Source: Synechococcus sp. (GTDB lineage: Bacteria; Cyanobacteriota; Cyanobacteriia; PCC-6307; Cyanobiaceae). Taken from it: a stretch of DNA of 64,000 nucleotides. This document shows positions 11,284 through 34,293 of this stretch, piece by piece. Each line of letters opens with the position of its first letter. The stretch's first letter is position 1. The position numbers were made by a program, and so were the translations under genes. The stretch is taken from contig JBJBDC010000001.1 of assembly GCA_047285535.1 (NCBI GenBank), positions 1,696,136 to 1,760,135 on the forward strand, read 5' to 3'. Under the pieces are notes generated by a model. That model had not been told where the DNA came from, did not search any database, and worked only from the letters and a program-made list of their open reading frames with translations.

Positions 11284-12708
11284 TTGAAGTCATCCCAGAA
11301 GCCCCTGTCTCTATGGGGCTATGTCGTCATCACCCTCCTCAGCATATTGGCTGGAGGGTGCAGCCAACCTGGTGCAGTTCTTGGTGATCCACCGGCAGAG
11401 CCGGCTTTACCGGCTGGGTTTGCAGTGGGCTTTAACCATCACTCAGGACATCGTTATCGCAGCCCGTTGAACGGTCAATGGAGAAATGGAGACGACCTTG
11501 AACAGATGCTGATCGAGGCCATCGAGTCCGCACAACAGGAAATTTTAGTGGCGGTTCAAGAACTCTCTCTGCCAGGCATCGCCCAGAGTCTTGTCGCGGC
11601 CTCCCAGCAAGGTGTGGAAGTCAAGGTGGTACTGGAAAATCACTACAGCAAGCCCTGGAGCCAACTCCACGACCTTGATCTGAACCGTCATGAACGCCAG
11701 CGACTCAAAAGCCTGAGAGCCCTGGCCGATCAAGATCAGAACGGTCTATTAAGCCCAGAGGAAGAACGGCAAAGCGATGCGTTGCTCATCCTTGAACAGG
11801 CCAATATCCCCTGGATTGATGACACCGAAGATGGCAGTCAAGGCAGCGGCCTGATGCATCACAAGTTTGTCGTGATCGACAGCAAGCGAGTGATCACCGG
11901 AAGCGCAAATTTCACCAGCTCAGGCCTGCATGGTGATGCTGGAGCAACACAAACCCGAGGAAATATCAACCATCTCCTCAGCATTCAAAGCTCAACGCTT
12001 GCGTCTTTATTCAGAGATGAATTTGCCCGGATGTGGGGAGATGGACCTGGAAGATCCAGCGACAGTCGCTTTGGACGAGGAAAAGACTCACAACCCCTGA
12101 AAACCATCAAGGTGGGCTCCGTCATCCTCCAAGTGCTTTTCCCCCCTCATTCCAAAACAACTCAAGGCCATGGTCTTGATATCATTGAAGATCAATTAAG
12201 CAGCGCGAACAAGACAATCGACCTGGCCTTATTTGTCTTTTCTGCGCAGCAACTCACGACCCAACTTGCAGAACGAATCGCAGCTGGAGTGAAGATACGC
12301 CTCCTTGCTGATCCTGGATTTGCCAGCCGCTCCTTTTCAGAAGTGCTTGATCTCCTTGGCGTCGCCCTGCCTGATCGCTTCTGCAAATTAGAGAAAGGCA
12401 ATCAACCATTAACCACTCCCATGAAGGGCATCGGCACCCCACGCCTCGCGCGCGGCGACAAGCTCCATCACAAGTTCGCCGTGATCGACAACAAAACCGT
12501 GATCACTGGATCCTTGAACTGGAGCCCGTCCGCTGCGCACACCAACGACGAAACCCTTTTAGTGATCCACTCACGCCAACTCGCCAAACATTTCACGCGT
12601 GAGATGGATCGGATGTGGCGGGGAGCGGAGCTGGGGATCACACCACGGATTCAGCGGAAACTCGACCACCAACGGATCCGCTGCGGCGCCGGGGTGGAGA
12701 GAATTTAA
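11284..12708 (+). CDS. Phospholipase D/nuclease superfamily protein (cyanobacterial ComA-like)
   Basis: Two HKD motifs (HHKFVVID...GSAN, HHKFAVID...GSLN); lipoprotein-like LAGGC. Confidence 0.88.
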   Translation: MKSSQKPLSLWGYVVITLLSILAGGCSQPGAVLGDPPAEPALPAGFAVGFNHHSGHRYRSPLNGQWRNGDDLEQMLIEAIESAQQEILVAVQELSLPGIAQSLVAASQQGVEVKVVLENHYSKPWSQLHDLDLNRHERQRLKSLRALADQDQNGLLSPEEERQSDALLILEQANIPWIDDTEDGSQGSGLMHHKFVVIDSKRVITGSANFTSSGLHGDAGATQTRGNINHLLSIQSSTLASLFRDEFARMWGDGPGRSSDSRFGRGKDSQPLKTIKVGSVILQVLFPPHSKTTQGHGLDIIEDQLSSANKTIDLALFVFSAQQLTTQLAERIAAGVKIRLLADPGFASRSFSEVLDLLGVALPDRFCKLEKGNQPLTTPMKGIGTPRLARGDKLHHKFAVIDNKTVITGSLNWSPSAAHTNDETLLVIHSRQLAKHFTREMDRMWRGAELGITPRIQRKLDHQRIRCGAGVERI

Positions 12709-12740
12709 GAGATGAGCAGAGTGACTTGTATTCTGGCTTG

Positions 12741-12824
12741 GGAGTTGTCAACTCTGTTTCACCTATATACAACGGATCACTGCTACTCCCGAAACATCGA
12801 CTGTTAGGCATCTGCAGAATCGCT
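12741..12824 (+). repeat. Diverged direct repeat, copy 1
   Basis: Aligns to 30691-30772; 32/40 identical over 12785-12824 vs 30733-30772, plus shared CAACTCTGTT..ACCTATA. Confidence 0.7.
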
Positions 12825-13120
12825 ACTCCATCCCTATTCACAACAACAATCTTGGGACAAAGGTATGACCCTTTACCTGATATCCAGAGATCTTGGCTCT
12901 GACAAACTTCTCTTCACGAAAAGCCGAATCAACATTACAGACATTGCAACAGAATCATGTATGAGGCAATTATTGAGACAGCCAATTAAACTCCAAAAAT
13001 TAATTAAAAAATTCAAATTTAACCGCGCAAACAATAAAAGTCACAAGGCCGCCTTGCAAGATGGAAATCAAATCATTATTAGCAATACATGAATATCACC
13101 TATAAAGAAAGAGCATCAGA

Positions 13121-14029
13121 TCAAACAATTCTCTCAAGAAGCTCCTTCGATTCTTCGAAAACCTTGAGCGCAGAATGTAGGCCTACATTGGTAGCATCAG
13201 TGAGTGTATCAATCATTTCGAAGGTGTCACTAACTGACTCAGCTGACGATGACACTTGATCAGCGATGTCGCTAAAAGAGCTTGCGAGCTCGTTTGCTGT
13301 CTCAATTAAATCAGAGATTTGCTCATCGTAACTTGAATTCATGGACTCTACTGCATTAGCAACGCTATCCTCCATCGCCCCCCCCAATTCCTCTAGACCA
13401 TCCTTTAAAAAGAGGCTAGTGTCTTCTGATTTAGAAGCAAACTCGGAAGACTGCTCAGCTATTAGTTCAATCTTACCGTCTTCAACGAGTTCCCCAAATA
13501 CAGAAGCTTCACCTTCAAGTTTGCTGGGAATATCAGACAACAAAGAGACAACCTTATCTGAAATTTCTCCAGTCAACTCGTTCGCACTCACGGTAGAATG
13601 ATCACTAAGATTGATATATCCTTCCAAGAGTGAAGCGTTGTTAGAGCTAATATCTTGCCATGATGACGCCTGATCAGATCTTATAGTTTGTATTAGTTCG
13701 CCGGATTCTTCAGCATGAGTTTTAGCTGCCTCAATTTGTTCAGCAAACGAGCTGCGAATATTCTCGAGTGTATCAAGAGTTTTTGAACAGTTTTCCCCGA
13801 AACCATCTAAGCGATTGGATATGTCATTTCCCAGCTCTTCAATTCTTTCTAAAGCAAGCCGGACAGAATCTTCAAGATCACTAAAACTAGAATTAAATCC
13901 CTCAAAGCTACCATCTGTGCTTTCTGAAATACTTTGGAGGTTGGCATCTAATTCGTCGATTTCCCTCAAGCAATCAGAAGACTTTTCGGCAAGCTCAATG
14001 GCAATAGTTTCAAATTCTGAATTTGACAT
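13121..14029 (-). CDS. Acidic amphipathic all-helical protein D (4th of tandem set)
   Basis: 302 aa, S/E/D/L-rich, one Pro, 11-residue hydrophobic periodicity. Confidence 0.85.
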   Translation of the reverse strand: MSNSEFETIAIELAEKSSDCLREIDELDANLQSISESTDGSFEGFNSSFSDLEDSVRLALERIEELGNDISNRLDGFGENCSKTLDTLENIRSSFAEQIEAAKTHAEESGELIQTIRSDQASSWQDISSNNASLLEGYINLSDHSTVSANELTGEISDKVVSLLSDIPSKLEGEASVFGELVEDGKIELIAEQSSEFASKSEDTSLFLKDGLEELGGAMEDSVANAVESMNSSYDEQISDLIETANELASSFSDIADQVSSSAESVSDTFEMIDTLTDATNVGLHSALKVFEESKELLERIV

Positions 14030-14069
14030 GATAAAAATTGGACGAGAAGTTTAGACGATAGCCAAGAAG

Positions 14070-14981
14070 TTACTTAAACATACTTGGGAGGCTGTCATAA
14101 AGGCTAGTGACAGAATCAACAAGCGGCTCGAGCTCTCCAACGACCTCTTCTACAAGCCCGCGAATTACGTCAGATTCATCTTTTTTAGAGATCATGTCTG
14201 AACCAGCACGAGTTATCCCATCTGTAAGCGTATTTACGCATTCTTTGACAATCGAATCTATCTCCTCCGTGATTTTAGATTTGAAATCAGAAGAAATCTC
14301 TTCGAGTTTTTCCGACACTTTCTCGCTAGCAAGGTTGGTGAGAACATCAATAAATAACTCACTGCTACTTTCACCATCTGAATTAAAGAGGTCAAGAAAT
14401 GAGCTCACGTCATCAGCGACACCATTAATTGCATCGTCTAAAAGCTTATGAGATTGGTCAATCTGGCCTTGTGAAGCCTTAATCACTGCCTCAAAATGTC
14501 CGGATTGCTCATCCAAGTCAACCTTAACCTTTTGGAAGAGCTCGTTATAAGTATCAAAAGATTTTTGCAGATCAGAAGAGTGACTAACGGCAGAATCCCT
14601 ATTGTCAACAATTTCGCTCAACCGCTGTGTAAGGGATTCGTGCAATTGAGAGGCATCCTGCCTTATGGTATCAACTGAAACTTGGAGATCACTCGAGCTG
14701 CTTTCAATAAGACTATTAAGTTCATCAAAAGATGATTCTAATGAATCAATTAAATCCTTGGATTCATTAACTTTGGAGTCTATTTTAGACTCCATGTCCG
14801 CAGCCTTATCACGAAGAGAAGCAATAAGGGACTCAGCAAGATCCTTTTTGGCATCAATTTCATCTTGATATTCAGAAATCTTGTTTTGAATCGAGGCAAT
14901 AGTATTGGCTGATTCCTTAATCTGATTTGGAAGCTCTGAAGCAGCTTGGGTGATGGACTGAACTGATTGAGCGAGTGTCAT
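14070..14981 (-). CDS. Acidic amphipathic all-helical protein C (3rd of tandem set)
   Basis: 303 aa, same composition; C-terminal ELEPLVD. Confidence 0.85.
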   Translation of the reverse strand: MTLAQSVQSITQAASELPNQIKESANTIASIQNKISEYQDEIDAKKDLAESLIASLRDKAADMESKIDSKVNESKDLIDSLESSFDELNSLIESSSSDLQVSVDTIRQDASQLHESLTQRLSEIVDNRDSAVSHSSDLQKSFDTYNELFQKVKVDLDEQSGHFEAVIKASQGQIDQSHKLLDDAINGVADDVSSFLDLFNSDGESSSELFIDVLTNLASEKVSEKLEEISSDFKSKITEEIDSIVKECVNTLTDGITRAGSDMISKKDESDVIRGLVEEVVGELEPLVDSVTSLYDSLPSMFK

Positions 14982-15021
14982 GGGTCTATAGAATAATCAG
15001 GATCAATTGAAATTGGAGTAT

Positions 15022-16014
15022 TTAGCAGACAATATCAAGACCATCATTGATTGTTTCCAACACTTCTCCAACTGTTTTCATGGCAGGAAATATTGGTGCC
15101 ATGACTGCACTAACCGATGAGCCTGCTGCCATCGTGACCATCGTTGTTCCTAATTCTACTAATAGAGCGTCCAAAGTATTTTCCAACGCCTCTTGAAAGG
15201 AATCACGCAACTGCTGTTGGATATCATCGTTTAAGCCTGATACAGAATCACTAACAAATGTTGCAAAATTATCTATCATCTCTTCGCCAGCTGATGTACA
15301 AGACTCATCAAAATTGTTAAGCCCATCCTTAAGTTGAGTGGAAAGATTTAAAAGAGGTTCTTCAATCAGACTAGTTTGTTTGTCTGTTAAAGCAGCGATA
15401 GCCGTGTCATAAGCCGAGCCTGAAGAAGTTCTAAGTGAATCTAGAAAATCCTGGACAAACGCATCAAAATTTGATGATATTTTGTTCATCAGATTGATCA
15501 AATCATCGTTGGCTTCCGTGGCTGTTGAATGAATTACATTGACACCATCTGAGAGCAAAGAAATCGCTGACAAAGTATTTTCAATGGATACATTTGTCTC
15601 ATCTCGAAATTGCTCAATAATTGCAATGATTTCGTTAAACGAAGTGGTATATTCACTTTCTTGAGCACTTAACAAAGCCTGGGTATTAGATATTAAAGCT
15701 GTTGCATTGTCAAAATTATCGCTTAATTTAGACTTGCCAGCTTCAATCGACGTATCAAATCTCTCCATTGCTTGGTGAAAATTGCTGGATAGGGATTCAC
15801 TATCTGAATGAAATTTGGAGAGTGACTCGAGCAAGATATTATATTTGTCACGCAGGGCTTGATTTATGCCGTCCTGATTCGACTCTGTTTCATTCAGATC
15901 ATTTAAAGCACTTTCAAGCAAGTCATCAGAATTATCAAGTATAGCTCCAAGTTCATTCAGCTTTTGTGTAGAATCCTCAAGGTCTGATGCATATCCAGAA
16001 AGGTCAATAGTCAT
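15022..16014 (-). CDS. Acidic amphipathic all-helical protein B with C-terminal hydrophobic segment
   Basis: 330 aa; LGTTMVTMAAGSSVSAVMAPIFPAM uncharged stretch near the C-terminus. Confidence 0.85.
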   Translation of the reverse strand: MTIDLSGYASDLEDSTQKLNELGAILDNSDDLLESALNDLNETESNQDGINQALRDKYNILLESLSKFHSDSESLSSNFHQAMERFDTSIEAGKSKLSDNFDNATALISNTQALLSAQESEYTTSFNEIIAIIEQFRDETNVSIENTLSAISLLSDGVNVIHSTATEANDDLINLMNKISSNFDAFVQDFLDSLRTSSGSAYDTAIAALTDKQTSLIEEPLLNLSTQLKDGLNNFDESCTSAGEEMIDNFATFVSDSVSGLNDDIQQQLRDSFQEALENTLDALLVELGTTMVTMAAGSSVSAVMAPIFPAMKTVGEVLETINDGLDIVC

Positions 16015-16052
16015 GATTTAGATCCTAAGTCCATTAAATTGTGAGTTAAAAA

Positions 16053-16928
16053 CTAGGCAATAAGTTCAATGACAGGCTTTATTTCATCGTAAATGTCTTG
16101 TACCTTTTCGGTAAATCCGAGAACTTCCTCAATCTTGGAAGTGTATTGCGCTATGTCATCAAGGCCAAGTTCTTTAAGTGTTTCAGTAGCTTCCTTCCAC
16201 GAAGAGCCACCTTCCGTGATTTGATTAACGATATCTAAGCCAATTATCGATTCAATAGTTGACAATTTTTCTTGATGAAGAGACTTAATACTATCAAGAA
16301 GGTCCTCGCTAAGCGATTTGGCTGCCTCCATCATTGAGGTAAGCTTTTGAGTTAACTCGTCTGTCCTCGTTGTCAAAAGGTTCTTAAGTCCCGATAGATT
16401 TTCGACCGATTCATCAAAACCAACCGTAGTTTTCTCAATTGTTGACACGATAGAAGTGTTAATGGTTTCTTTATCTTGATCCATTGTAGAAATAGTGTCA
16501 TTAAAACTACGCTCAAGCTCCTTGACGCGCTCAAGATAATCTGAGGAAGATGTAATAGCAATTTGAGATGCATTTTCAGTAGACTGGGAGCTAGTGGTCA
16601 TCACTTCGGAGTAAGCAGTTAGCTTAGAATTAATTCCTTCTTCGATAGATTCAATCTTTGCGGCAAAATCAGACAACCTTTCATCTAACTCAGTGATTTT
16701 GCTGTTTGTAGTAGCTCCTAGTGACTCTATTCGCTGCGCTAGTTGGTTGACTAATATTTGATTTTGGCTCATGCTTTCCTTTGCACTTTCTGTTGACTCA
16801 GTGATAATATCTAAAGCTGCATTCATGGTTATCTTATGCTCCTCAATTCCCTTAGAATAAGAGTCCATGCTATTATTAAGTTTCATCATCTTGTCCTGAG
16901 TTTGCTGGATCAATGCATCAAGGTCCAT
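16053..16928 (-). CDS. Acidic amphipathic all-helical protein A (1st of tandem set)
   Basis: 291 aa; only Pro is in the C-terminal EIKPVIE. Confidence 0.85.
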   Translation of the reverse strand: MDLDALIQQTQDKMMKLNNSMDSYSKGIEEHKITMNAALDIITESTESAKESMSQNQILVNQLAQRIESLGATTNSKITELDERLSDFAAKIESIEEGINSKLTAYSEVMTTSSQSTENASQIAITSSSDYLERVKELERSFNDTISTMDQDKETINTSIVSTIEKTTVGFDESVENLSGLKNLLTTRTDELTQKLTSMMEAAKSLSEDLLDSIKSLHQEKLSTIESIIGLDIVNQITEGGSSWKEATETLKELGLDDIAQYTSKIEEVLGFTEKVQDIYDEIKPVIELIA

Positions 16929-17482
16929 AGCAAGAACAATTCATATTGAAACCATTAGCAACATCCACCAAGAAGGATGGCAGGCTTTATACTTCTTAAC
17001 CAAAGGCCAATTGCTCCTGTGGCCAATAAATATCAATCTAAGACACAAAAACCATTATCTTCATTAGCAGTGTCTCCTGAGGGCAGGAGTGCAATCACTA
17101 AGTATTGCTCAACGTTTAAAACTACAAAAAACAAATAAAGAGCCGCCAACTCGGAAGTTAAAGAATAAGCAACCGATTTGGGTTGAGATGGTTAAATTAG
17201 CCGATTTAATGCATGAAACCCAGTTGAGTTCAGTCTATTAATGATTTCGAGACTTGGCTTAGCTTGTTAACACCACCTCAGAACAAAAGTCGGATTCTCA
17301 CCCTTAAAGAACTATATGGATTGTTTTTTTCAGCAAGGACAAGCTGAAAATGGTTTGACGGCTGGTGTGTCGCTCTAAGGTACTTACTACCTAACATATC
17401 TGAAGAAAAGCTCAAAAAGCCGAGCTACCTAGCCTCAGTTATGCCTTTACAGGGTACCAATCATAATTAGTGCGAGTCGATA

Positions 17483-18304
17483 TCAATACAAAGGATTGGG
17501 ATCTCTGTGGTTGCGAACCGCGATCGCTAGTGACACATCATCACCACTACCTTCAGCAGAAATTTGTGCTAAACCAGTATGTATTTCGTTCATATCGTGA
17601 AGTTCCGCCACGCCAGCACAAAGCTGCAGGTAGTCGTCATCAGTGGCGCAGGATTTACGCACTCCATCTGTGCTGAGTATGAGTGCTTGTAGTGGATCGT
17701 AGGCATCTAGACGATGCAGCTGAGCTCGCCCTGACCAGCGATGTTGATCCATTGCACTGCAGAGACTTTCGGTCGCTTCACTAAGTTCCAGTTCAGATAT
17801 GGTTTCCTGGCTGAGAATGATAGATGCACCACTACGTTCAACCGCGGCAAGATCCCAATCGCCAACTCCCGTGGTTCCCCACCAACCCGGAGCAAGCAGC
17901 ACTAAGCCAATCGTGCATCCATACGTAAGAGACTTAAACGGTTGGTTCAACGGCGTGCGCTTTTGCCAGTCTGCTTCAATTACGTCTAGCCAAGATCTCT
18001 GTATAGCTTCAGGGAGATCAAGCTGAAGCAAACGTAGCCATCTCTCTACAGCAGTAAGAGGGGTCTGTTGCAAATGCTTAGCAACCACCTGCTGTGCAGT
18101 AGCACATGCCAATGCACTGCCTACATGGCTAAGCCAATAGCGGCTACCGCCGTGGCCGTCAGAAACAACCATCATTTGGAACTGGTCGACGCCAGCCTGG
18201 AGAGTGCAACAAAGTGAGGAATCTTGGCAGGGCTTACCCTGACGCTTGTGAGCAGAACCAATCACAGTGCATGCTCGAGTTTGTAACCATCCTGAACTCA
18301 CCAC
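17483..18304 (-). CDS. PP2C-family protein phosphatase (TerY-P triad)
   Basis: GSAH...PCQDS, VVSDGHGG, GVGD, ILSTDGV, GSGDDVS. Confidence 0.9.
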   Translation of the reverse strand: MVSSGWLQTRACTVIGSAHKRQGKPCQDSSLCCTLQAGVDQFQMMVVSDGHGGSRYWLSHVGSALACATAQQVVAKHLQQTPLTAVERWLRLLQLDLPEAIQRSWLDVIEADWQKRTPLNQPFKSLTYGCTIGLVLLAPGWWGTTGVGDWDLAAVERSGASIILSQETISELELSEATESLCSAMDQHRWSGRAQLHRLDAYDPLQALILSTDGVRKSCATDDDYLQLCAGVAELHDMNEIHTGLAQISAEGSGDDVSLAIAVRNHRDPNPLY

Positions 18305-19032
18305 ATTAAGGGGCCGACGTCATCGATCGATTTGTTGAGTTCTGGTGGCAGGTCTGGGAGCCGGATGTTGGCATCCGATTCTGGGCCGGCTGGCGACAAA
18401 CGTGTGGTTGGCATCGATGTAGCCCCCACCACACATGTCGAGGCCCACTGAAGGTATTGAGAGAGCGTAGTAGCGTTGCTCGCCTGCAACGGCCGGCGGC
18501 CTGAGCGCTCATCGCCAGCAGGTGCAGGTCCAATGAATTGCTGCAGCACTTCGAGGTCGGCATCGTGACCCATTGCGATCGCGAGGCGTACTGCTTTTTG
18601 AGCCCAAGGCAAGTGCATTAACTGAGAAAGTCCTGCTTCAAAGTCGTCGGTAGGTTGACCATCGGAAATCAAAACCAGCACCGGTGGTAAAGCCCGCTCA
18701 TCCATTGGCGGAGATTGCAAAACACTGGCTACCAGACCAAGGGCGGCGCCCATGGCCGTTGTACCACCCGCCTCAAGATCCTGCCATTGAAGATTCTGAA
18801 CCGGTGTGGCGTCTTCTAAATGCCAGGCTGCCTGATCTGCGAAACATACAACACGCACCAAAATTTTCGCTTCTGGGTTCTCATTTGCCACCTCAGACAT
18901 GGAAGGCAGTGATTGGCGGATTGCCTGATTCAATGCCTGCATTTTTCCCTGAGCCTCCATTGAACCGGAGCAGTCGCATATATAGATGAAATGTAATGGC
19001 CGACTGCTAAGGCGAACTTTAGGGAAAGGCAT
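18298..19032 (-). CDS. vWA-domain protein, TerY-like
   Basis: MIDAS DCSGSM, GGTTAMG, LISDGQPTD. Confidence 0.9.
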   Translation of the reverse strand: MPFPKVRLSSRPLHFIYICDCSGSMEAQGKMQALNQAIRQSLPSMSEVANENPEAKILVRVVCFADQAAWHLEDATPVQNLQWQDLEAGGTTAMGAALGLVASVLQSPPMDERALPPVLVLISDGQPTDDFEAGLSQLMHLPWAQKAVRLAIAMGHDADLEVLQQFIGPAPAGDERSGRRPLQASNATTLSQYLQWASTCVVGATSMPTTRLSPAGPESDANIRLPDLPPELNKSIDDVGPLMW

Positions 19033-19035
19033 GAT

Positions 19036-20361
19036 TTAAGGGCAAATTACCAAAACAGTTCCCATGTGACTATCAAGACGATGAGTAGAAGCGAGATTAG
19101 AGGTTTTTCCAGGCTCTAGTGAAATTTGTTGACCATTTATTAAGCTTACCTGCCAAGGATGGCGACTAAGATTTTTGAGGCCGAGCAAGCTGGGAACACT
19201 CGGATGTGGAACAATTACGGCAATAGGGTGATCAATAGTTTCTCCTGATAAGACATCAAAATGATGCGGATGCAATTCATTTCCAGCCGAAGCATAAACG
19301 ACTCCATGCGGCAACTTTAAAAGCGTTGGATTAGGCAATGATCCTCTACAACTCCAACAAATCATCTCTTCTTCAGCGTCACAGAAGACCTCCTGACCAC
19401 AGTGAGGGCACAATTGTCGTTGATCGAGGCACTGGGCTAAAGCCTGCTTCCACTGACCAGTTAATGAACGTTGTTCAGGTTGGCGCAGCCCAAGTGACAA
19501 GCTACGTTCAAACAACTTCTGAATAATGCGAGGATAAATAGGCCAGGTGATGAGAGCAGCAATATGTTCAATAGGATCAGGTCGATTGCTCGCATTAATG
19601 GGATCAAAGATAAAAAGTGCCTCTTCGGCATAAAGACACCGCCTGGCCGGTTCGTCTAAACAACGGATCTCTAGCTCGCGGGCACCACGAAAGGGATCAT
19701 GCCGTGTGAGCAAACGAAACAGAAGAACGGCTAACGAGAACAAATCACTACTGGCACCGGGAAGAGCTTTCCCCAAAAGAACCTCTGGCGCAATAAACCC
19801 GGGGGTACCTAAAATTGTGCCATGCCGCTGTCCATCAATATCAACATTGTCGTTGTCACAAATCAAAATCCGTCCGGTACTCGGCTCAAGAAATATATTT
19901 CCGAGAGAAATATCCTTGTAACAAAGTCCTTTCAGATGCAGCTGATGAAAAGCCTCTGCCAAGCGAAAGCAGGCCTTAAGGACATTCTGCAGACTGATTT
20001 CTAAATCACCAACAGCGTGCAAGTGGGATCCGACGAAGCTGGGAGGTCTCAACGGCATCAAATAACCAATTCCACAAAAATCATTATTCTGCGATTCCAA
20101 TGTTGCTAGTGGCCAAAGGAAATCAGCATTTGGTGAACCAAACCTAATGCTTTGGCGCAAGCGTGAATGCAATCCAGGGTCTCTAGCGATACAGCTGGGG
20201 AAATACCATTTCAAGGCAAGCAGTTGACCGCTGCTAGCCTTGTCTAATTCAACGACATAAACTTGACCTTGGCTTCCAGAACCTATTCCCTTTAATATAC
20301 GTAGTGGTGTGTCTAGACCCTTGAATTTTAAACATGGTCCTCGAGGCAACAACCAGGTCAT
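19036..20361 (-). CDS. Ser/Thr protein kinase with C-terminal Zn-ribbon (TerY-P triad)
   Basis: GSGSQGQVY, LALKWY, YKDISLGN, CDNDN, GTPGFIAPE, SDLFSLA; CPHC...CWSC. Confidence 0.9.
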   Translation of the reverse strand: MTWLLPRGPCLKFKGLDTPLRILKGIGSGSQGQVYVVELDKASSGQLLALKWYFPSCIARDPGLHSRLRQSIRFGSPNADFLWPLATLESQNNDFCGIGYLMPLRPPSFVGSHLHAVGDLEISLQNVLKACFRLAEAFHQLHLKGLCYKDISLGNIFLEPSTGRILICDNDNVDIDGQRHGTILGTPGFIAPEVLLGKALPGASSDLFSLAVLLFRLLTRHDPFRGARELEIRCLDEPARRCLYAEEALFIFDPINASNRPDPIEHIAALITWPIYPRIIQKLFERSLSLGLRQPEQRSLTGQWKQALAQCLDQRQLCPHCGQEVFCDAEEEMICWSCRGSLPNPTLLKLPHGVVYASAGNELHPHHFDVLSGETIDHPIAVIVPHPSVPSLLGLKNLSRHPWQVSLINGQQISLEPGKTSNLASTHRLDSHMGTVLVICP

Positions 20362-21072
20362 TGCATACTGTCCTCCTGAATCTCACCAATGAAAGAGTAT
20401 AAGCCAGCAATCATATAGGGATTAAGTTGAGGAAAGCCCGCCATGGGGAGCGGATAACCCTTGAGAAACAATTCATAAGTGATGGATGCAAACTTTATTT
20501 AACTAAAACTGCAAAGCCTGTCAGGCCAAGCAGAGACGGAGACAACAACAGCATGAAAGCTGGCAGAACGGCAATTAAGTGAAAACGCTCTAAGATGAAA
20601 AAATCATGAAGAGCCGTAAAAACGGAGCCACACAACCAATCAAAATCCGAAATTACCAACAGACTAATAATTTTTAGGCTGAATTGAAGTTAAAGCATAA
20701 GGGTGTATGCGATAAGTCACTCAAGGAGAAGGGGTGATAAACGAAAAAATGGGATGTATAATTACACAGTTGATCGATCAATAATTACTGCGCCAATTTG
20801 CAAGAGAGGGCAGACCTCGCTGGAACATAAGATACAATCAAACTGCTTTAAAGATAACATCATCCCAGCAACACCAAAAGCACAAACACTTGCAACAAAG
20901 AAGACCATTCAAAGCCCTAAGAATTGCATGGACGTACGATAAGATGTCTAAAAATATAAGTGCACATGGTGACCAAAATGAGCAACAAAAGTGAGCCTAT
21001 AGACGAGACAAGCAATGGCCTATGAATGATACCAGACAACCATAGATAGACTTACGATACTAGACGATTAAG

Positions 21073-21846
21073 CTATAAACTGCACAACGAATCAAGGAAG
21101 TTCTTGTCACCTTCATCGCATAAATTTCCGCCATGTGATTGTTCAGGCTTTTCAGCATCTCCAGAATCAGTTGAGTTCCCTCTAGAGGGATCATCAGACA
21201 AACTACTATTCTTAATACATTCATCGTATGCAGTATTATTTATAATTCCCAGCGCTCTGCACCTGAAAGAAGGATAATAATTCCAAGCGAAAATAGTTAC
21301 AGACAATGCAACCCCAGATCCCAATATCAGGATTCTCTTGTTAATACGAGCCAAAGCTTTGTTTATTATTCTGGGTAATGATTGACTGTTTCGCTGATTA
21401 ATAGATATTTCGCCCGTAGTATCAGCGAGGATTTGAGAAGGACCCTCAATCTTATAGCTAGAATGATCGGCTGTATCAATTGAATCAACACTGTCTTGGC
21501 TCTTTTTGTCAGAGGATCGCGAATCCTCACTTATCTCCAAGTACCCGTTTAATACTTGACTGATCTGATTGACTATATCATCTCTATAGTATGTTTGAAA
21601 TTCTTCTAAAAGGCTGTCCCTCAATAAAGTCGAATGAGATTGACCATTTTTAAAATCATATTCAAGCAATCGCTGGTTCCCAAAAAGATCCCTTAACGGA
21701 GCCAAAAGCCTCTCGTTATCACCTATATAATCGGCCAATGCTGACTGCATAACAGATCTAATATCAATTCGTGAGCCTATTGTCAAACGAAAAGACTTGA
21801 GTCGTGCCCCAATATCTGCAAGGGATAAGTCAGACTTCGAAGACAC
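21073..21846 (-). CDS. Hypothetical single-pass membrane protein
   Basis: Helical N-domain, low-complexity linker, TM ILILGSGVALSVTIFAW, Cys-containing C-tail. Confidence 0.7.
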   Translation of the reverse strand: MSSKSDLSLADIGARLKSFRLTIGSRIDIRSVMQSALADYIGDNERLLAPLRDLFGNQRLLEYDFKNGQSHSTLLRDSLLEEFQTYYRDDIVNQISQVLNGYLEISEDSRSSDKKSQDSVDSIDTADHSSYKIEGPSQILADTTGEISINQRNSQSLPRIINKALARINKRILILGSGVALSVTIFAWNYYPSFRCRALGIINNTAYDECIKNSSLSDDPSRGNSTDSGDAEKPEQSHGGNLCDEGDKNFLDSLCSL

Positions 21847-22720
21847 TGAAATCTATATTTTTACGAACACTAATTGTATTTCGTTTGCTTGTCAACCGCA
21901 TACACAAAAAATCATGAGGCATGTCTTAAAATTCAATCCCTTTCCATAAGGCAACATTGACTTGTCAGTTTATCCAACGATCTCTATCACAATCGCAGGG
22001 GTAATCATATTTTATACGTTGATCAGCCCAGCCCTGAATATTTAATTACAAAACGAACATATACAAGTCCATCAATAAGACTAGAGCGCCGCGAAGGAAT
22101 GAGAACATTGTGGACATAGTTACAAAATGCCGTTATTTATAAAAAGCGCTTGAAACGTAAGGGTTAATGGCAATACTGAGAAATTTTCAAAATTTCAACT
22201 GATGCAAGCAAATACTCAACTGGATAGAGACAAGCATAGAAATAAAAGCTGCAACTCATCCAACAATCACTTGTGAAGCCATTGATCAATGGGCGATATA
22301 AATCACTATTAACAATAGAAAAAGCGTCTCATAAAAACAAGACTATAGGACAGCACTAAGCACACGACAGCAATCATTGGTCATATTAGTTGCTCAATAT
22401 GGATAAATATCACTGGGTTTAACCAATATTTTCTATTTAATCGATAGGCCCAATAGAGTTAAACCTTTAAAGCGCCTGGAGCTTAAGCTAAAGCCTGATC
22501 AGAAAACTACAATAGTTTTCTTGAGCCAATATATTCTTACACAAAGGAATTTCCCTTGAAGACAAGGTGTTGCAAAAACTTTTTATCATAGTTAATATTT
22601 ATCGTCAATCTCAGTTTTCTCAAAGTCAGAGTTTCATTATTACCAGCACCATGAACCAAAGAAAAGCGGAAAACAAGTTAAACCCATTAATGAAGATAAA
22701 ATTGTGATAATTGACTATAA

Positions 22721-24271
22721 TTGGCAGAGACCTTCAGGGGGATAGCAGTGGAAGGCAATTTCTTTGCTGAATTAACAAAGTCAAACGGTAGACTTCTGAA
22801 GAAACTTAACAATAGCGCCGAGCAAGTCTCAATTGGAACCAGCATTGATTGCGATATCATTATTGATAAAAATATCTATCCAACAGTTTCCAGGGTGCAA
22901 TCGTTTATTAGAATCATTAAAGAAAGTGAGACAATTACAGCTTATATTTTCGATGCAGATTCACGAAATGGGACATATGTGAACGATTTGCGAGTAACAA
23001 ACAAACAGGAGCTGAAAGATGGAGATAAAATCAGTCTTAGCAAACATATCCATGCATGCGAACTTAATTTTAACTACCTCAACACTGAAGATCAGATTCT
23101 GAAGCCTCTGGAAAACTACTACCCAGACAGTAATAAGAAAGACGCTAGAGGATCATCTCCTGTGAAGCTTAAAGAAACAACTCAGAAGGAAAGTACTAAA
23201 AGTAATACAAGTCGGCTTCAAAAGAATGCTCCAATCAATCTCAATTCAATGCTAGCAGAGACTAATAAAATGAAAAACAATCACGAAAAACTAGTAAAAT
23301 CAGATAAAATTGAAAACACAGAAGTTGATGAAAAACAAATAATTTCACAGGGCAATGCGCTTATAATGGACATAAGCAACGAAACAGTACAAAGCAATCC
23401 AAAGCAGACGAATATCAGTATCAGAAAGACATCTCAAGACTCAATAGACATAAATAATACTATTCATAACTCCCAAAAACCGTTAGAATTTGATAGTGAT
23501 CGAGACGATAATGATAGTTTGTTTGTTATTTCAGAAGGTCTAATCGACGCAAAGTCAATAGCTGTCGACTCCCAGGCTTCTCAGATTGCATACTGCTCAG
23601 ACAATGGATATTTAAATTTGCAAAAATTTGGACAATCAGAACCTTTTGCTCATACGGATTTGGGTCAAGCTTCTACGGCAATACGATTTTCAAAGATTGG
23701 AGAATTAATTGCAATCGCAATGCAAAATAAAGATATAGCTATCTGGGATATCAGTCTAAGAAACAAAATAAGTGTGCTACAGGGTCATAAATTACGTATC
23801 ACGGATATTTCATTTAGCCCTAATTCAAACAACTTGGTAAGCTGTAGCTTGGATAAGACAATTCGCTGTTGGGATATACGCTCTGGAAAAGAGCAGAAAG
23901 TAATACGTACTAAGGGTCTTGGGGCTACAGCTATTGACTATATTCAAAATGGTACAAAAATAATTTCTGGAGGAAAAGATCGAGTCCTTAGGTTATGGGA
24001 TTATAATAGTATGGAGGAAGCGCGTCAATTAAGCGCTAACAAGATAAATGCCGGAATCGAGAAGATTTGTTGCTTAGATCAAAGGAATGAGATTCTTGTT
24101 GCAACGGCAGATCATATTATTCACAAACAATCACTTAAGGCCATTGGCATAGACTTGAGCAGTGTGAATTATCCAAGACAAAAATCGATACTTTCAATAT
24201 GCAATAGTGGTAAGCTCTTAAGTCTACTTGATGCAACTGGCCGGCTACAAGGATGGAATATTAATTGTTGA
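22721..24271 (+). CDS. FHA (degenerate) + WD40 repeat protein
   Basis: IGTSIDCDI...VSRVQ...DADSRNGTYVN; WD40 repeats GHKLRITDISFSP...DKTIRCWD and GGKDRVLRLWD. Confidence 0.85.
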   Translation: MAETFRGIAVEGNFFAELTKSNGRLLKKLNNSAEQVSIGTSIDCDIIIDKNIYPTVSRVQSFIRIIKESETITAYIFDADSRNGTYVNDLRVTNKQELKDGDKISLSKHIHACELNFNYLNTEDQILKPLENYYPDSNKKDARGSSPVKLKETTQKESTKSNTSRLQKNAPINLNSMLAETNKMKNNHEKLVKSDKIENTEVDEKQIISQGNALIMDISNETVQSNPKQTNISIRKTSQDSIDINNTIHNSQKPLEFDSDRDDNDSLFVISEGLIDAKSIAVDSQASQIAYCSDNGYLNLQKFGQSEPFAHTDLGQASTAIRFSKIGELIAIAMQNKDIAIWDISLRNKISVLQGHKLRITDISFSPNSNNLVSCSLDKTIRCWDIRSGKEQKVIRTKGLGATAIDYIQNGTKIISGGKDRVLRLWDYNSMEEARQLSANKINAGIEKICCLDQRNEILVATADHIIHKQSLKAIGIDLSSVNYPRQKSILSICNSGKLLSLLDATGRLQGWNINC

Positions 24272-26408
24272 TATTAGACTTATGGATGTCTTCCATGATC
24301 TGAGTCAGTGCATCTAACTGACGACTCATTTTTTTTATATCTATCCTGGTTAGTTTATGATCAGAATCTGCCGAAAGTAAACCATCTGAGCCTATATCTA
24401 CAGTGCTCTTTTGGTGTGAGGAGATATTTGAGGATGTTGCCAATCGACCTTTGAAAAGTTCCTTATGTTGAACAATCTCAGCCAGCAGATATGATCGAAT
24501 CTCATCAATACGAATTTTCATATATGTGATATAATAATTTCTAACTTCTTTCTTGAGTTTTCCTAGAGACTCTTCGCATTTTTGGTCAAGCTCTGAATTA
24601 TAAGTAAAAAACATTAGGATAAGAATTAAGGGTAAAATTATAGGAAGCGCTTCTTTTTTTACATTGTCAAAGTTAAACAAACCCGCAATTATTGAAATAA
24701 TTCCAACTGAGGCTAGGACCTGGCTTCTTAATTGTTTCCAGATATAGCCCGGAAAGTTCGGGAAGAGGATGTAAGTAGAAGTAACGGGAGGAGCCACATC
24801 TGTTTGCAAGATCTTACTAAGATCAAAAGAAAGATTAGGAGTTGTTGACTGTTTTTCATCATTAGCAATGTAAACATTTTTTTCGGTGCTTTGAAACGCT
24901 TCGGAATAAAGACCCTTAAGGCTGTCACTATCATTCTCTTTACCAAGCAAAACTGCATCTAGAGTTGAAGTACACCAATTCATAAGATGACCATGGCACC
25001 AATCAAGCATATGGTTATGAAGATATTCAGTATCCGGTTCATTCTTATGCTGTGCTAAATAAATAATCAATTTATTTCCATTGCGCTTCCTAATTTGTGT
25101 CAATCCTGAAAGTTCGCGATCTACGGATCTCCTCAATGCATTTGGGGAATATTCATCAAGAAATGTCTCTTTCCCTTCCTCTAATGAACTCTTAAGCGTT
25201 TCAATAAAATTATCATAACGAGACACAAAATCAGAACCAAAAGAATTAGCTGCCCCTTGGACTTTGGTCAGTTTAGGATCGTCAGAATTAGTATTCATAC
25301 TCCTCTCATTCTCTAAGTGAGCATCTAAAGTCTCCTCATACAACTTGTGTAGGCTAGAAGTAATCCAGTAAATAGAGCGGGAAATGGAGTTCAACCAATC
25401 TTGGTCATTGCTAGACCCTCTAATTACATTGATACACTCATCGTATTCAGGCTGAGCCGCTGGAACCAGCATTGTCGTCCCATCAGAAGGAACAAAGGGT
25501 GACAAGTAAAGAGGGAAGAAAGAAATCATCGGACTAAGTTCAGCAATATAAGAGCTGAGCTCCGAAACATGATCATTACCAGCAGTCAATATAGAACAAT
25601 TAACAACTACTATAAAGTTAGAAGCTGAACATGAAGACAATAGATATTCAATTAGCTTTAGCACAGATTCGTGATCACTATCTGACAATAAAAGCAAAGC
25701 TGTTGTCACAGCTATGGAATAATGGGAAACATCAGGGCACTCTATATACTTTGTGTTTCTATTATTAATAACATTAAGACTGGCAGAGCCATTCATAGGA
25801 GCATGAGCTCCTAAAGTTATTTCATCATTGGCTGTGAATTGTATCCATTGATTTTGCTGACACTTTTTATTGTTGACAAAAGTCCCATTAAGGCTCCCCA
25901 GATCTCGCAAAAATGTATCATTCTGGGAATTAATTTTAACTTCCGCATGAATTCCGCTTATTAGCGTCAAGTATTTGTCTACAGCCAACGAGCACTTTTG
26001 CTTATTTCTACCAATGGTTTGAACAGAACCTGGAACCAAATCAAGCCTTTTTGACTCATAAACCCCTTCCGAGTTCACAAATTTAATATACATTTCTACT
26101 GAATTATCAATCCTTAGGTGACTTAACCTGTCGTCATCAATCTTGATGTCGAACTCATTGATTTGATTCGACGCAAGCAAGTCCTTTAACAAAGCATATT
26201 CATCTTCTGATTGTGCGCGCAACAACAGAGACCGGGATCGTTCTGTGAGGCAATTTTTGCACAAAGACAAATCGTCAATGGTTAAATCGAGAAATTGCTT
26301 TATTGGCGAATCGTTGACTATTTTCTCTAATTTGACAAGCAACCTTTCGAGTCTACGTGTGACCTTGGCAGTGTCATCCATGTCGCGATTATTCTCCAGG
26401 ACATTCAT
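24261..26408 (-). CDS. FHA-domain protein with helical stalk and C-terminal TM hairpin (dynamin-like architecture)
   Basis: TIGRN...ISGIHAEV...RDLGSLNGTFVNN; two hydrophobic segments VLASVGIISIIAGLF and ALPIILPLILILMFF followed by a coiled-coil-like region. Confidence 0.8.
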   Translation of the reverse strand: MNVLENNRDMDDTAKVTRRLERLLVKLEKIVNDSPIKQFLDLTIDDLSLCKNCLTERSRSLLLRAQSEDEYALLKDLLASNQINEFDIKIDDDRLSHLRIDNSVEMYIKFVNSEGVYESKRLDLVPGSVQTIGRNKQKCSLAVDKYLTLISGIHAEVKINSQNDTFLRDLGSLNGTFVNNKKCQQNQWIQFTANDEITLGAHAPMNGSASLNVINNRNTKYIECPDVSHYSIAVTTALLLLSDSDHESVLKLIEYLLSSCSASNFIVVVNCSILTAGNDHVSELSSYIAELSPMISFFPLYLSPFVPSDGTTMLVPAAQPEYDECINVIRGSSNDQDWLNSISRSIYWITSSLHKLYEETLDAHLENERSMNTNSDDPKLTKVQGAANSFGSDFVSRYDNFIETLKSSLEEGKETFLDEYSPNALRRSVDRELSGLTQIRKRNGNKLIIYLAQHKNEPDTEYLHNHMLDWCHGHLMNWCTSTLDAVLLGKENDSDSLKGLYSEAFQSTEKNVYIANDEKQSTTPNLSFDLSKILQTDVAPPVTSTYILFPNFPGYIWKQLRSQVLASVGIISIIAGLFNFDNVKKEALPIILPLILILMFFTYNSELDQKCEESLGKLKKEVRNYYITYMKIRIDEIRSYLLAEIVQHKELFKGRLATSSNISSHQKSTVDIGSDGLLSADSDHKLTRIDIKKMSRQLDALTQIMEDIHKSNINN

Positions 26409-26899
26409 CGTTATTTTTCAATTTTAATTGGCCTGCAAGCCTTGTCAACACAAGCGATGATGTTACAGAGTAATATACTTTTAGAGCAGTTAAAGATTTC
26501 TCGGTGATCACAAGTAACAGGCGGGAGAACTCATTTAATGGAGCATATTATTGCCTTATAATTAATACTGGGTGATGCCCAATGGAGGCCTAAATCTGTT
26601 TTTATCGGACATCTTATTACACCCAGGGGTATTGGATGTATTCAAGTTATCGAATAAATAACACAGTGGTAATAACAATCATAGTTCTACTTAAGGCCTG
26701 CCAAAGCCTTTAGGATCTCTTCCTTTCCTAGGGATCTTACTTCAGGCTTCTTGTTGGTGTCTTAATTACCACTCAAATAATCATTTTGTTCTTCGGTTGA
26801 TCACTTCGGGGCGTGCTGAGGGGCATAGATTGCCTCGATGATGCCAACCACCTCAGTTTCATTCACTGCAAAAAGGATCGAAGCTCATGCATGATCATC

Positions 26900-27230
26900 C
26901 GTGTAGATCCAAACCTCAGAACAGTTCTACAAGTATGGATGCTGGTGCCTGCTTCGTTTACTCCATCAACTGTTTGAGTGCCTCCAGCAGATCAAGATCT
27001 TTCCCATCCACCAGAGGGCAATAGCCGTTCAACGTTGCATCAAAATCAGCCCACTGAAAATCCCTGCAGATCTTCGCTGAGATCGACACTGCTCGTGCTC
27101 TGGCAACGAGGGCATCAAACCTGCCCAAGCTGTTGACGAAGTGATCTTGACCGTCCAGAAGGACCCTTACCTGTAAAGCACCATTGTTGTTCCGGAGGGC
27201 TGATGCTTTTCTCAAGATCCATCTCATCAC
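26900..27230 (-). pseudogene. Tyrosine integrase N-terminal remnant
   Basis: LRNNNGALQVRV...PLVDGKDLDLLEALKQLME* parallels 29258-29755; after the stop continues TKQ, then frameshifted IHTCRTVLRFGS. Confidence 0.8.
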
Positions 27231-27434
27231 TGGGATCTGGCTTAAAGCCGGCCCTAGGCATATGCCAAGATCACTTAGTTTTCTGCAGCTCTATCGCATC
27301 TCGGACAATCCACTTCGTGAGATTGGCTTGGGCTCTGGCTTTGAGTGCCTGAGGGTGGCTGAGAACCAAGGCAAAAAAAGGCGCGGCGACAAGCTGCATC
27401 AAAGAGTGCGACGGAATGATTCTCAACTTCATTT

Positions 27435-28280
27435 TTACTTCCCAGGCATTTTTTGTTTTTTTAGGTAAAAATAGCTTTTGCCGTATAAATAGCATTTGGT
27501 GGTAGAGGCCTTTTCTAAATCACCTCTAATGTCAATCGGTGCGATTTCTTTGATGCCACAATGGGCACTTGCGTAATCACCAATCTCTAATGCATGCTCA
27601 ATGTGTTCTGGTTTTATTTTGCGCGATGGATTGCTCATATCCCAAAAGCCCTCGCTGCTAACCACTTCTATGCCGTCAATTACCGTGCTACAGATTCCAT
27701 CCGAAATGCAATGTAGTTTTACATTATTTACCCTGCCAGTGACCTTTAATTCAAAAATAAATTCAGGCTCTGTTTTGGCATTGACTTCATGTTCTAAGCC
27801 AGAGCGCGTAAACCAAAATTTTCTTTCGGTTGGAGCATAAATGTTGTCATCAATTTTTTTAAGTCTTAGCTTGTATGTATTGCCAGAAATTGGGAATGCT
27901 GACCTAGTGCCTCCGGGTGGCGCAAATTCCCTACCCCATGAACAATAAGTTTTAGATAACCCATAGTTTTTCATCAGTGGGTTGCTGCGCCCACGGCCCG
28001 AGCAATAATAATCCATGGGATTATATGATGGCAATATAGTTATTATCCGATTATCATTAGGCATGGGAAGCTCAACGACTAATTGAGTGTATGTTTTGCT
28101 GCCATCAATATATTGAGTCAACTGCAATATTTTGGCATTGGAAATTAGGTCGGATTTTTCTTCTATTCTTTGTATTGCTTCCTTCTCGACTATTTCTTGC
28201 AGCCATGGCGCAATAGCGGAATATGAACTAACGGGAGTCAAAAAGACCGCGACTAGCGAAGTAATTATTTTGCCCTTCAC
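27435..28280 (-). CDS. Hypothetical exported protein
   Basis: 281-aa ORF with signal-peptide-like MKGKIITSLVAVFLTPVSSYSA and several Cys. Confidence 0.7.
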   Translation of the reverse strand: MKGKIITSLVAVFLTPVSSYSAIAPWLQEIVEKEAIQRIEEKSDLISNAKILQLTQYIDGSKTYTQLVVELPMPNDNRIITILPSYNPMDYYCSGRGRSNPLMKNYGLSKTYCSWGREFAPPGGTRSAFPISGNTYKLRLKKIDDNIYAPTERKFWFTRSGLEHEVNAKTEPEFIFELKVTGRVNNVKLHCISDGICSTVIDGIEVVSSEGFWDMSNPSRKIKPEHIEHALEIGDYASAHCGIKEIAPIDIRGDLEKASTTKCYLYGKSYFYLKKQKMPGK

Positions 28281-28719
28281 GAATTGCGCTCAATTGGTAG
28301 ATAATATAATTGGATAGCCTGCGGTGCGCTTGATCTTCATGCGGCCTTAACATGCCGACTAAATCCTCAAAGAGATTGCCACTTCCTTTAGCGATATGAG
28401 CTTTGAGCTGAATCCCGATCGCTGTTAATTACAAGAGACTGATAGTGCAGGGAATACTTACCTGGGCATCCAGTCCCTATATTGAAATAGGCGAAATCCG
28501 CAGTTGTGGATTATTTGATTTGATTGAATTAGCACCTACAGGTGACAGCGTTTGACGCAGAATCCTCCTGCCTGTCAACACTGAAATAATGCTTCGGTGT
28601 TTCGATGAGTCAAACTTTTTTCATGTTTGGAACCCCTCGTTTCGATAGCTGTTAGCTGTGCCCTTATCGTCAACACTACAAGGCTAAACTTTAAGGATGC
28701 AAAGTCATCTATTTTGCAA

Positions 28720-29755: not shown

Positions 29756-30027
29756 GATCCAGCTCCGGAATCCGGCCTATCAGTTCCACGCTCAGAAGCC
29801 AAGCTAAAAACGTATCTGTTCCCTACAGAACACCCCTCGTAGGCCCGCCTTCTGGCTCACTGCAGCTGAGCTGCCCTCAGATCTCCCATCAGAAGGGGAT
29901 GGGGCACATCAAGAAAGGGTGAGAAAATGATGAAAGCTTGTTTTAATATGGTAGTTTCTAAATGTAAAGTTTAAGAGGCCAAAGAGGGCCTCTCTTTGGC
30001 ATGCTGAGTACAAGATCTATTTCCGTA

Positions 30028-30447
30028 ATGGCAATTCATCCCAAGAATTTTGCGCTGTTAGGCCTATTGGGAGCTCTTTTTGTTTTGGGCACCTCTAAGG
30101 CAGAAGCGCAGTATGGATTGACAAGTCCAATTGAGCAAACACCACGTATATCTAAGCCAAATGAGCCAAATAGAGGCAGCAAAATCAATGAGATAAAACT
30201 AACCAACAACACCCGTCTTAAGGTATGGTATGACTTCGGATCTAAGGAAGATCAAAGCCTTACTCCTGGGAAATCAATAACATGGAGACTCGGTGGCCCA
30301 AACCAAAGCATGAGAAAAATATTATTTGATCGATTTGTCGATAAGCCAGGCATTCAGCATGTTGAATATACATTGAAGTCAGGCAAGCAATATACTTTCG
30401 ACTTAGTCAGAACCAGGAAAGGGGATGAGATCATGGTGCACGATTAG
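30028..30447 (+). CDS. Hypothetical exported protein
   Basis: Signal peptide FALLGLLGALFVLGTSKAEA followed by a small beta-rich domain. Confidence 0.7.
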   Translation: MAIHPKNFALLGLLGALFVLGTSKAEAQYGLTSPIEQTPRISKPNEPNRGSKINEIKLTNNTRLKVWYDFGSKEDQSLTPGKSITWRLGGPNQSMRKILFDRFVDKPGIQHVEYTLKSGKQYTFDLVRTRKGDEIMVHD

Positions 30448-34260: not shown

Positions 34261-34293
34261 AAAATAGTCCAGCACTTTTAGGAAATCAATCGG

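Follow-up and report, generated by a model that had tools for sequence, protein, structure and literature searches.

Do ten adjacent genes for helical proteins, phosphorylation enzymes and FHA proteins in a Synechococcus genome form one system, or did separate systems come to lie side by side? The genes occupy positions 13121..26408 of a 64,000-nucleotide stretch of contig JBJBDC010000001.1 (positions 1,696,136 to 1,760,135; the whole stretch is called the window). A sequence-only reading had proposed a single phospho-regulated, membrane-directed system made of four tandem helical proteins (H1 to H4, here the quartet), a kinase-vWA-PP2C triad, a transmembrane (TM) protein, an FHA-WD40 protein and an FHA protein with a helical stalk. 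The ten-gene block itself was confirmed, with every open reading frame (ORF) present at the given span, nine of them on the minus strand; the tenth, FHA-WD40, is on the plus strand and runs toward the FHA-stalk gene. The 3.03-Mb host genome is a single contig and has one copy of each of the ten. In its evolutionary make-up, however, the block consists of two modules within one island of about 27 kb and is not a single ten-gene unit. The quartet belongs with the FHA-stalk protein, which appears to be a dynamin relative without GTPase motifs (the FHA pseudo-dynamin), and with a Ser/Thr kinase; the triad is a separate module.

The helical quartet and its conserved neighborhood

The quartet consists of H1 (16053..16928, 291 amino acids, aa), H2 (15022..16014, 330 aa), H3 (14070..14981, 303 aa) and H4 (13121..14029, 302 aa), all on the minus strand with 38-40 bp between neighboring genes. 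H1, H3 and H4 were assigned from their ORFs and profile comparison, and H2 from a structure model and alignment. The four products look helical, as had been proposed, and are acidic (D+E 18-23%), with Pro and Trp nearly absent. Net charge ranges from -45 to -68 across the four families, hydrophobic residues recur with a period of 3.55-3.57 residues, and pairwise alignments run almost the full length (probability 98.7-99.0%, 237-290 columns), scores that coiled-coil composition may inflate. None of the four reached a curated Pfam or NCBIfam cut-off, PADLOC returned weak coiled-coil matches and nothing more, and a word-based homologue search found no relative of H2. Matches to apolipoprotein, SMC, ZorA, JetC and tape-measure entries in Pfam, NCBIfam, PADLOC and the PDB were discarded as generic helical matches. 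AlphaFold2, run on a 119-row alignment, predicted that H2 forms a continuous helix from residue 6 to 211 (206 residues, about 30 nm at the standard helix rise) followed by helices of 88 and 21 residues (pLDDT 82, pTM 0.34). Foldseek found no match for this model and VIA-align matched long helices only, at a large root-mean-square deviation; this lack of fold matches does not demonstrate a new fold. The most conserved part of H2 is its C-terminal 40 residues, and in the window protein this conserved Gly/Pro tip includes an uncharged run of 25 residues. Judged from their paralogy and fixed gene order, H1 to H4 would assemble into one bundle.

Outside the window, the quartet was surveyed at 27 loci in 25 other cyanobacterial genomes. 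Weak H2 matches in G335, G262, G009, G483, G640, G148, G192 and G715 were left out of the count, and kin among the loci are not independent, so that the counts overstate the number of events. By profile search, 21 of 400 Cyanobacteriia genomes had a full-length H2, and 200 genomes of the host's family yielded no further copy of the quartet. The quartet was complete at 25 of the 27 loci (both gaps were at contig ends, with the missing genes seen on other contigs), and the order H1-H2-H3-H4 was identical at every listed locus. The pseudo-dynamin lay within 15 kb of the quartet at 24/27 loci, three of these copies being partial at the edge of the examined DNA. The remaining three quartet genomes had a full-length pseudo-dynamin elsewhere, so that it was encoded in 25/25 quartet genomes; none of seven quartet-free relatives encoded it, and all seven gave FHA-length matches only. 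A Ser/Thr kinase was likewise within 15 kb at 24 loci, the other three being cut by contig ends. WD40 was fused to the kinase at 13 loci and to FHA at five, never both together. At loci L071 and L072 the kinase was upstream of H1, the position held by the triad in the window. In terms of gene neighborhood, the phospho-regulated, membrane-directed system does exist, because the quartet, the FHA-stalk protein, a WD40 protein and a Ser/Thr kinase co-localize elsewhere. We consider it very probable that the core of quartet, pseudo-dynamin and kinase is a genuine conserved system. To this extent the one-system proposal held, whereas the triad was found at none of the 27 loci.

The H2 family comprised 366 representatives at 50% identity (E up to 1e-10); among the 150 matches listed, most were about 325 aa long. 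Their source labels read 'chromosome segregation ATPase' or hypothetical, so a widely distributed system may be going under wrong annotations. Two metagenome contigs carried quartet genes, H1-H2 on one and H2-H3-H4 beside an ECF sigma factor on the other. One metagenome scan and one viral scan gave no matches, nor did plasmid searches, and the single match of a genome-collection scan, in Paenibacillus, was spurious.

Additional genes were seen at several loci. In three related genomes, three or four extra helical genes directly followed H4 (L060, 12442-17071; L061, 12878-19988; L062, 3973-7486); one of them, of about 550 aa, had an N-terminal hydrophobic segment, and the set is possibly a second, diverged quartet. 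Ser/Thr kinase-Hsp70 fusions adjoined the quartet at L075 (948-4031) and L076 (7753-10236), where three or four kinases were present. G052 had a second pseudo-dynamin piece in tandem (L090, 380-3415), and in G715 a partial H4 adjoined a transposase-like ORF (L093, 3-1809).

An FHA protein of probable dynamin ancestry

The gene at 24261..26408 (minus strand) encodes a 715-aa protein that had been read as an FHA domain with a helical stalk and a TM hairpin. The FHA domain and the stalk were recovered, and profile comparison and alignment refined the whole to a dynamin-like plan: a remnant G domain without a P-loop, an inserted FHA domain at about residues 115-215, a helical trunk, and a hydrophobic paddle near residues 570-610. 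The FHA domain of the window protein retains Arg, Ser, His and Asn. Among 20 aligned homologues, it was a clean insert in 18 and absent from two. The 20 rows, with their FHA columns removed, were compared by HHalign with 20 cyanobacterial dynamin-like proteins. The local alignment (probability 81.6%, E 1.1e-5, 160 columns) covered the second half of the G domain and the neck, the global alignment (69.9%) was colinear through the hydrophobic paddle, and seven controls (a reversed profile and six other families) gave 0.5% or less. The P-loop was present in 0/20 pseudo-dynamin rows versus 20/20 reference dynamin-like proteins, and DxPG was likewise found in 0/20. In Atlas, the nearest named clusters were dynamin families (0.77-0.79), which is a lead only. 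Pfam scans gave no match to Dynamin_N, single dynamin sequences matched weakly (probability 0.6% and 3.4%), and a PDB sequence search matched FHA domains and nothing else. PADLOC returned no match, a word-based search found no relative of the whole protein, and a single-sequence structure model was too poor for use (pLDDT 37). On these comparisons, the FHA-stalk protein appears to have a dynamin-like ancestry and to have no GTPase motifs.

The convergent neighbor (22721..24271, plus strand, 516 aa) has the FHA and WD40 domains attributed to it, as determined with Pfam, but alignment showed that its FHA domain is without the conserved Arg and His that 5/5 FHA-WD40 homologues keep.

The kinase-vWA-PP2C triad is a separate module

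The triad was upstream of H1, on the same strand and 554 bp apart, as had been described, and all three products passed Pfam cut-offs. It comprises a TerY-P-type Ser/Thr kinase (19036..20361, PF00069), a TerY-like vWA protein (18298..19032, PF00092) and a PP2C phosphatase (17483..18304, PF13672), all on the minus strand in the order kinase-vWA-PP2C. The C-terminal Cys pairs of the kinase, at residues 318 and 335, suggest metal binding of the zinc-ribbon type. The vWA and PP2C proteins had no match in PADLOC, a library in which the presence of TerY-P models was unchecked. For the adjoining gene (21073..21846, minus strand), which had been called a TM protein, the ORF was confirmed, but its hydrophobic segment is single and marginal (KD19 1.63), making the 257-aa product a single-pass candidate. 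Its homologues adjoin triads, not quartets.

The GC content of the triad was 0.46-0.54 versus 0.37-0.42 for the remaining seven block genes, a difference to which the sequence-only reading had already drawn attention. The triad proteins were 63-78% identical to picocyanobacterial copies, and the quartet and FHA proteins were 20-25% identical to their best cyanobacterial homologues. When the DNA of 60 relatives was searched, only the triad matched within the block (G018, 67% identity, different site). Of 400 Cyanobacteriia genomes, 21 had the TerY-like vWA, with 15 close matches (E below 1e-50); this survey and that of H2 apparently used the same draw, as the family tallies were identical. Quartet or FHA-stalk genes were present in 0/16 triad neighborhoods; the ORF filter can lose genes in GC-rich DNA, and a genome-wide H2 search of these triad genomes was negative except in G505. 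Neither vWA nor PP2C was present at any of the 27 quartet loci other than the window. The overlap between quartet and vWA genomes was 1/21 quartet genomes (G505), with a distant vWA (36% identity) on a different contig. As a TerY-P-like unit the triad is unremarkable, and it is found where there is no quartet. Its assignment to a wider system was not borne out, and the caveat that it might be a separate insertion is the better reading, given its different GC content and the absence of co-occurrence elsewhere.

At locus L073, a triad-type kinase (39% identity over 438 aa) was beside the quartet, with no vWA or PP2C there. Since L073 has such a kinase, and since the window has no kinase near the quartet besides that of the triad, the triad kinase may be co-opted and may stand in for the system's usual kinase. 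Elsewhere, a fusion of FHA, transglycosylase and transpeptidase adjoined the triad of G018 (L011, 15492-17627), and an FHA protein of similar size was by the triad of G245 (L176, 1123-3480).

Tagged toxin-like genes and the H2 tip

At 11 quartet loci, 18 extra ORFs started with a common N-terminal helix of about 30 residues (the tag) ahead of differing bodies (the cargo), and one more on a twelfth contig brought the number to 19. Three served as seeds, ten were added by profile, and six were picked by eye. Pfam cut-offs were exceeded behind the tag in 6/19 (Ntox44, Ntox28, PT-HINT, peptidase C39, Amidase_6 and DUF6973). Six cargos shared a hydrophobic block of about 75 residues, which we take to be a pre-toxin domain, and diverged after it; four shared a Gly-rich C-terminus. 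A SUKH immunity gene came directly after one cargo, and the other small downstream ORFs matched no family. In 17/19 there was no hydrophobic N-terminal stretch (KD12 under 1.0). A genome-wide tag search of five cargo genomes gave 11 matches, all at quartet loci and all previously known; these 11 had built the tag profile, so the informative part is the absence of orphan tags. No tag was found in ten quartet-free genomes. Within the core, the best match of the tag was the start of H4 (42%, weak), and the N-terminal stretch of the window H4 is likewise the best, weak match to the tag of its relatives. A phage-sheath family was present in 3/4 cargo genomes tested, on other contigs, and was absent from cargo-bearing G457 and from the window genome. 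No LXG or WXG100 match was over cut-off, and sub-threshold WXG100 matches occurred in 4/119 H2 rows.

Other arrangements were also seen. At L082 (531-2170) and L090 (8849-9922), three untagged ORFs between H1 and H2 had a short helix-like C-terminus by eye; two such inserted ORFs in G444 share their final ~17 residues, possibly a C-terminal tag. In G333 (L064, 5356-10657), a satellite operon on the strand opposite the main H2-H4 adds two H1 genes and one H4 gene, together with two tagged cargos, which suggests that H1 and H4 are the cargo-facing subunits. Wza-like and Wzc-like genes were co-oriented between H4 and kinase-WD40 in six cargo-bearing genomes (L063, L079, L080, L081, L083 and L084).

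A quick tree of H2 placed in one clade (support 96) the 12 loci whose cargo is within the quartet or immediately follows it. At these loci the longest uncharged run in the H2 tip was 7-15 residues, broken by acidic residues, versus 14-29 in 16 other rows, 15 of which had 18 or more. The 16 rows include the window (run of 25) and the G333 locus with its separate cargo operon. The pattern fits a trade-off in which a rod built from the quartet would have either its own membrane-active tip or a payload. In the 119-row alignment, the charged-tip H2 subtype outside cyanobacteria accounted for 27 rows, and a non-cyanobacterial-looking, GARP-rich H2 clade (P0065, P0070, P0075, P0092, P0095 and others) also had a charged tip.

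Proposed mechanism and alternatives

We propose that the conserved module is a phospho-regulated membrane-contact rod, roughly 30 nm long and used between cells, and we give this about an even chance of being right; its complex formation, export and killing are inferred. The conserved unit would be H1-H2-H3-H4 with the FHA pseudo-dynamin and a Ser/Thr kinase, usually accompanied by a WD40 propeller. Each of H1 to H4 would supply a single long helix, the four chains together making a rod, some 30 nm long or longer, that the paddle of the pseudo-dynamin would anchor at the membrane. With FHA replacing the GTPase core, assembly would depend on phosphothreonine (pThr) supplied by the linked kinase and not on GTP. 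The rod would act on the envelope of a neighboring cell. At most loci, including the window, its business end would be the uncharged tip of H2 itself; in one clade and one satellite operon, toxins would dock via the 30-residue helix, the H2 tip of that clade having presumably become charged. In the window, where the usual kinase is missing and the TerY-P-like triad and TM gene are between the quartet and the FHA pair, the triad kinase could have been recruited in its place. The broader claim, which we hold tentatively and with somewhat less than even confidence, is that this is a new class of contact or toxin-delivery machine. It would combine a helical hetero-tetramer rod with a pThr-switched, GTPase-less dynamin, and either its own hydrophobic tip would strike membranes or the 30-residue helix would dock interchangeable toxins; neither a Sec signal nor a type VI or VII motor would be involved. 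The class would extend to hundreds of non-cyanobacterial lineages, and the host studied here, probably a marine picocyanobacterium, would have acquired a cargo-free version.

Several observations weigh against this proposal. No signal peptide was evident, no export route was identified, and EssC was over the TIGR03928 cut-off in 0/5 cargo genomes. Beyond the six cargos with Pfam domains, one had a weak glycine zipper and 12/19 had no Pfam match. Cargo of either type was absent from 14/27 loci, the tag search gave no match in five cargo-less quartet genomes, and the window genome had no tagged ORF among 27,074 frames (best E 0.27), where a different tag would escape. Since the 12 cargo-inside loci form one clade, the cargo and the tip change amount to about one event plus the G333 satellite. 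The window H2 was on a long branch outside that clade in the quick tree, with two unplaced representatives, and cargo delivery is therefore not simply transferable to the window. Phospho-reading is not obligatory, because two pseudo-dynamins are without FHA, and the FHA domain of the window FHA-WD40 protein looks degenerate. The possible inflation of the H1-H4 profile scores belongs here as well.

The same genes might serve inside the cell, in an anti-phage or abortive infection system whose kinase and FHA protein would sense infection, whose rod and pseudo-dynamin would damage or reseal the cell's own membrane, and whose tagged toxins would stay caged until set free. Bacterial dynamins act in phage defense, and the patchy island distribution (21/400 Cyanobacteriia, 0/200 others in the host's family) and lack of visible signal peptides would agree with such a role. 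The window quartet also adjoins a TerY-P-like triad, a module reported as anti-phage in the available text of PMC10542128. However, the toxin features of the cargo suit delivery to other cells (pre-toxin block in 6/19, PT-HINT, a cell-wall amidase family and the SUKH neighbor), and PADLOC, with its weak coiled-coil matches for H1-H4 and none for the pseudo-dynamin, lends no help; we regard an intracellular defense role as unlikely. A set of four long helices related by paralogy, of which one has a hydrophobic tip at its C-terminus, and a dynamin-like partner with a paddle would also suit a machine for membrane tethering, fusion or repair (vesicles, nanotubes, thylakoid or septal membranes), in which a SNARE-type four-chain bundle would work with the dynamin and toxins would be late passengers in one clade. 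The absence of cargo from 14 of the 27 loci and from the window would be expected there, but scattered occurrence and rapid divergence (the nearest cyanobacterial homologues are 20-25% identical) suit conflict better than housekeeping, and cargo genes are inside the operon, so that we find a tethering machine distinctly unlikely.

Nor do we favor the quartet as a loading adaptor or ruler for another export machine (contractile injection, two-partner secretion, or Wza/Wzc). The phage-sheath family in 3/4 cargo genomes, the Wza- and Wzc-like genes that six genomes have between H4 and the kinase, and the two-partner-secretion-like neighbors noted by eye at some loci point that way, but the lack of a sheath match in cargo-bearing G457 and in the window genome, together with the lack of any such partner common to most loci, makes it improbable. 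Joint evolution of the triad, the TM protein, both FHA proteins and the quartet as a ten-gene unit is already largely refuted, and we give it hardly any credence. Adjacency and co-orientation in the window, the triad's position upstream of H1, as with the kinase at L071 and L072, and the triad-type kinase at L073, though without vWA or PP2C, speak for it. Against these stand the absence of vWA and PP2C from all 27 quartet loci and of the quartet from all 16 triad loci, the 63-78% identity of the triad to picocyanobacterial copies versus 20-25% for the quartet, and the differing GC content. The membrane-contact rod remains our preferred explanation: the clustering of rod proteins, a motorless dynamin-like protein, a kinase and tagged toxin-like genes points to an undescribed machine that attacks or contacts neighboring cells.

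The genomic island and its insertion site

The whole block is in a low-GC genomic island (12650..39750) whose insertion site is the 3' end of a phospholipase D-family gene; the site is empty in congener G034. Because G034 joins window position 12,641 directly to 39,750, the island measures about 27 kb. A phycobilisome-linker-like gene flanks the region and, like the relatives of the host, suggests a marine picocyanobacterium. The phospholipase D-gene 3' end is an integration hot spot (window 12,460-12,665; L013, 11743-11982; L014, 7202-7372): many congeners have duplicated 3' ends downstream with integrase-like genes in between, and a decayed copy is present at window position about 33,640-33,800. 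A tyrosine integrase gene persists as two remnants (26,786-27,369 and 28,724-29,755, with PF00589 at 28756-29445), 71% identical to an intact-looking integrase of G016. The island also encodes a 1321-aa protein of the animal haem peroxidase family (34294-38259, minus strand), which has a distant paralogue elsewhere in the genome, and a TPR protein ending in long Pro-Thr repeats (30962-31867, plus strand).

Comparison with known systems

TerY-P is described in the available text of PMC10542128 (citing Anantharaman 2012 and Gao 2020) as a vWA protein, a PP2C and a Ser/Thr kinase with a C-terminal zinc ribbon or OB fold. The window triad (17483-20361) matches in its adjacent vWA, PP2C and kinase, identified by Pfam, and in the C-terminal Cys pairs of the kinase; it differs in the order kinase-vWA-PP2C and in being a guest that does not travel with the quartet. 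Polymorphic toxin systems (PMC3482391) and NTPase ternary conflict systems of multicellular bacteria (PMC7159879) combine a constant region for trafficking or coupling with variable effectors; Ntox28, Ntox44, HINT and SUKH feature among their families, and one GTPase-centered type has kinase-PP2C-vWA neighbors. The cargo of the window's relatives resembles them in its constant N-terminus and variable C-terminal toxin domains (19 tagged ORFs). The quartet, the tag and the FHA pseudo-dynamin are not mentioned in the available text of PMC3482391 and PMC7159879, and 'dynamin', 'coiled coil' and 'apolipo' have no occurrence in the first 300,000 characters of PMC3482391. The available text of PMC7159879, PMC10542128, PMC3482391 and bioRxiv 10.64898/2026.10.19.760177 does not describe the system, although supplementary neighborhood tables could list such loci. 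A full-text literature search, with subscription journals outside its coverage, found no title or abstract opening that describes such a system. It appears that no description exists of the quartet in combination with pseudo-dynamin, kinase and, as an option, tagged toxins.

If the proposal is right, a new trafficking signal and its carrier would account for a set of unassigned toxin genes and offer a short protein-export tag, and a dynamin with a phosphopeptide reader in place of its GTPase core would be a new switch for a membrane-remodelling protein. To our knowledge, few means of direct cell-to-cell attack have been recognized in cyanobacteria. In type VIIb secretion, LXG toxins have a helical N-terminus, variable C-termini and immunity genes, and their small helical Lap partners are thought to form a rod. 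The present system shares the helical toxin N-terminus, helical partners and variable toxin C-termini, with a SUKH immunity gene beside one cargo. It differs in having no EssC (0/5 cargo genomes), LXG or WXG100 over cut-off, in its diderm hosts and pseudo-dynamin partner, and in proportion, with a tag of about 30 residues and rod genes of about 300. The ClyA family of multi-component alpha-helical pore formers (Hbl, Nhe, MakABE) likewise comes from tandem arrays of three or four paralogs, whose helical products measure 300-400 aa and include one with a hydrophobic segment. The H2 model, in contrast, is extended where that family has a compact bundle with a central hydrophobic head, its tip is C-terminal, no family match was found, fold searches gave generic long helices only, and the proteins are strongly acidic and linked to a kinase, FHA and a dynamin relative. 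Closest to the pseudo-dynamin are the bacterial dynamin-like proteins, such as DynA and LeoABC. With this group it shares a colinear C-terminal half of the G domain, neck, trunk and hydrophobic paddle; it departs from them in the loss of the P-loop and DxPG (20/20) and of most of the G domain, in the inserted FHA domain (18/20), and in having four helical paralogues as partners.

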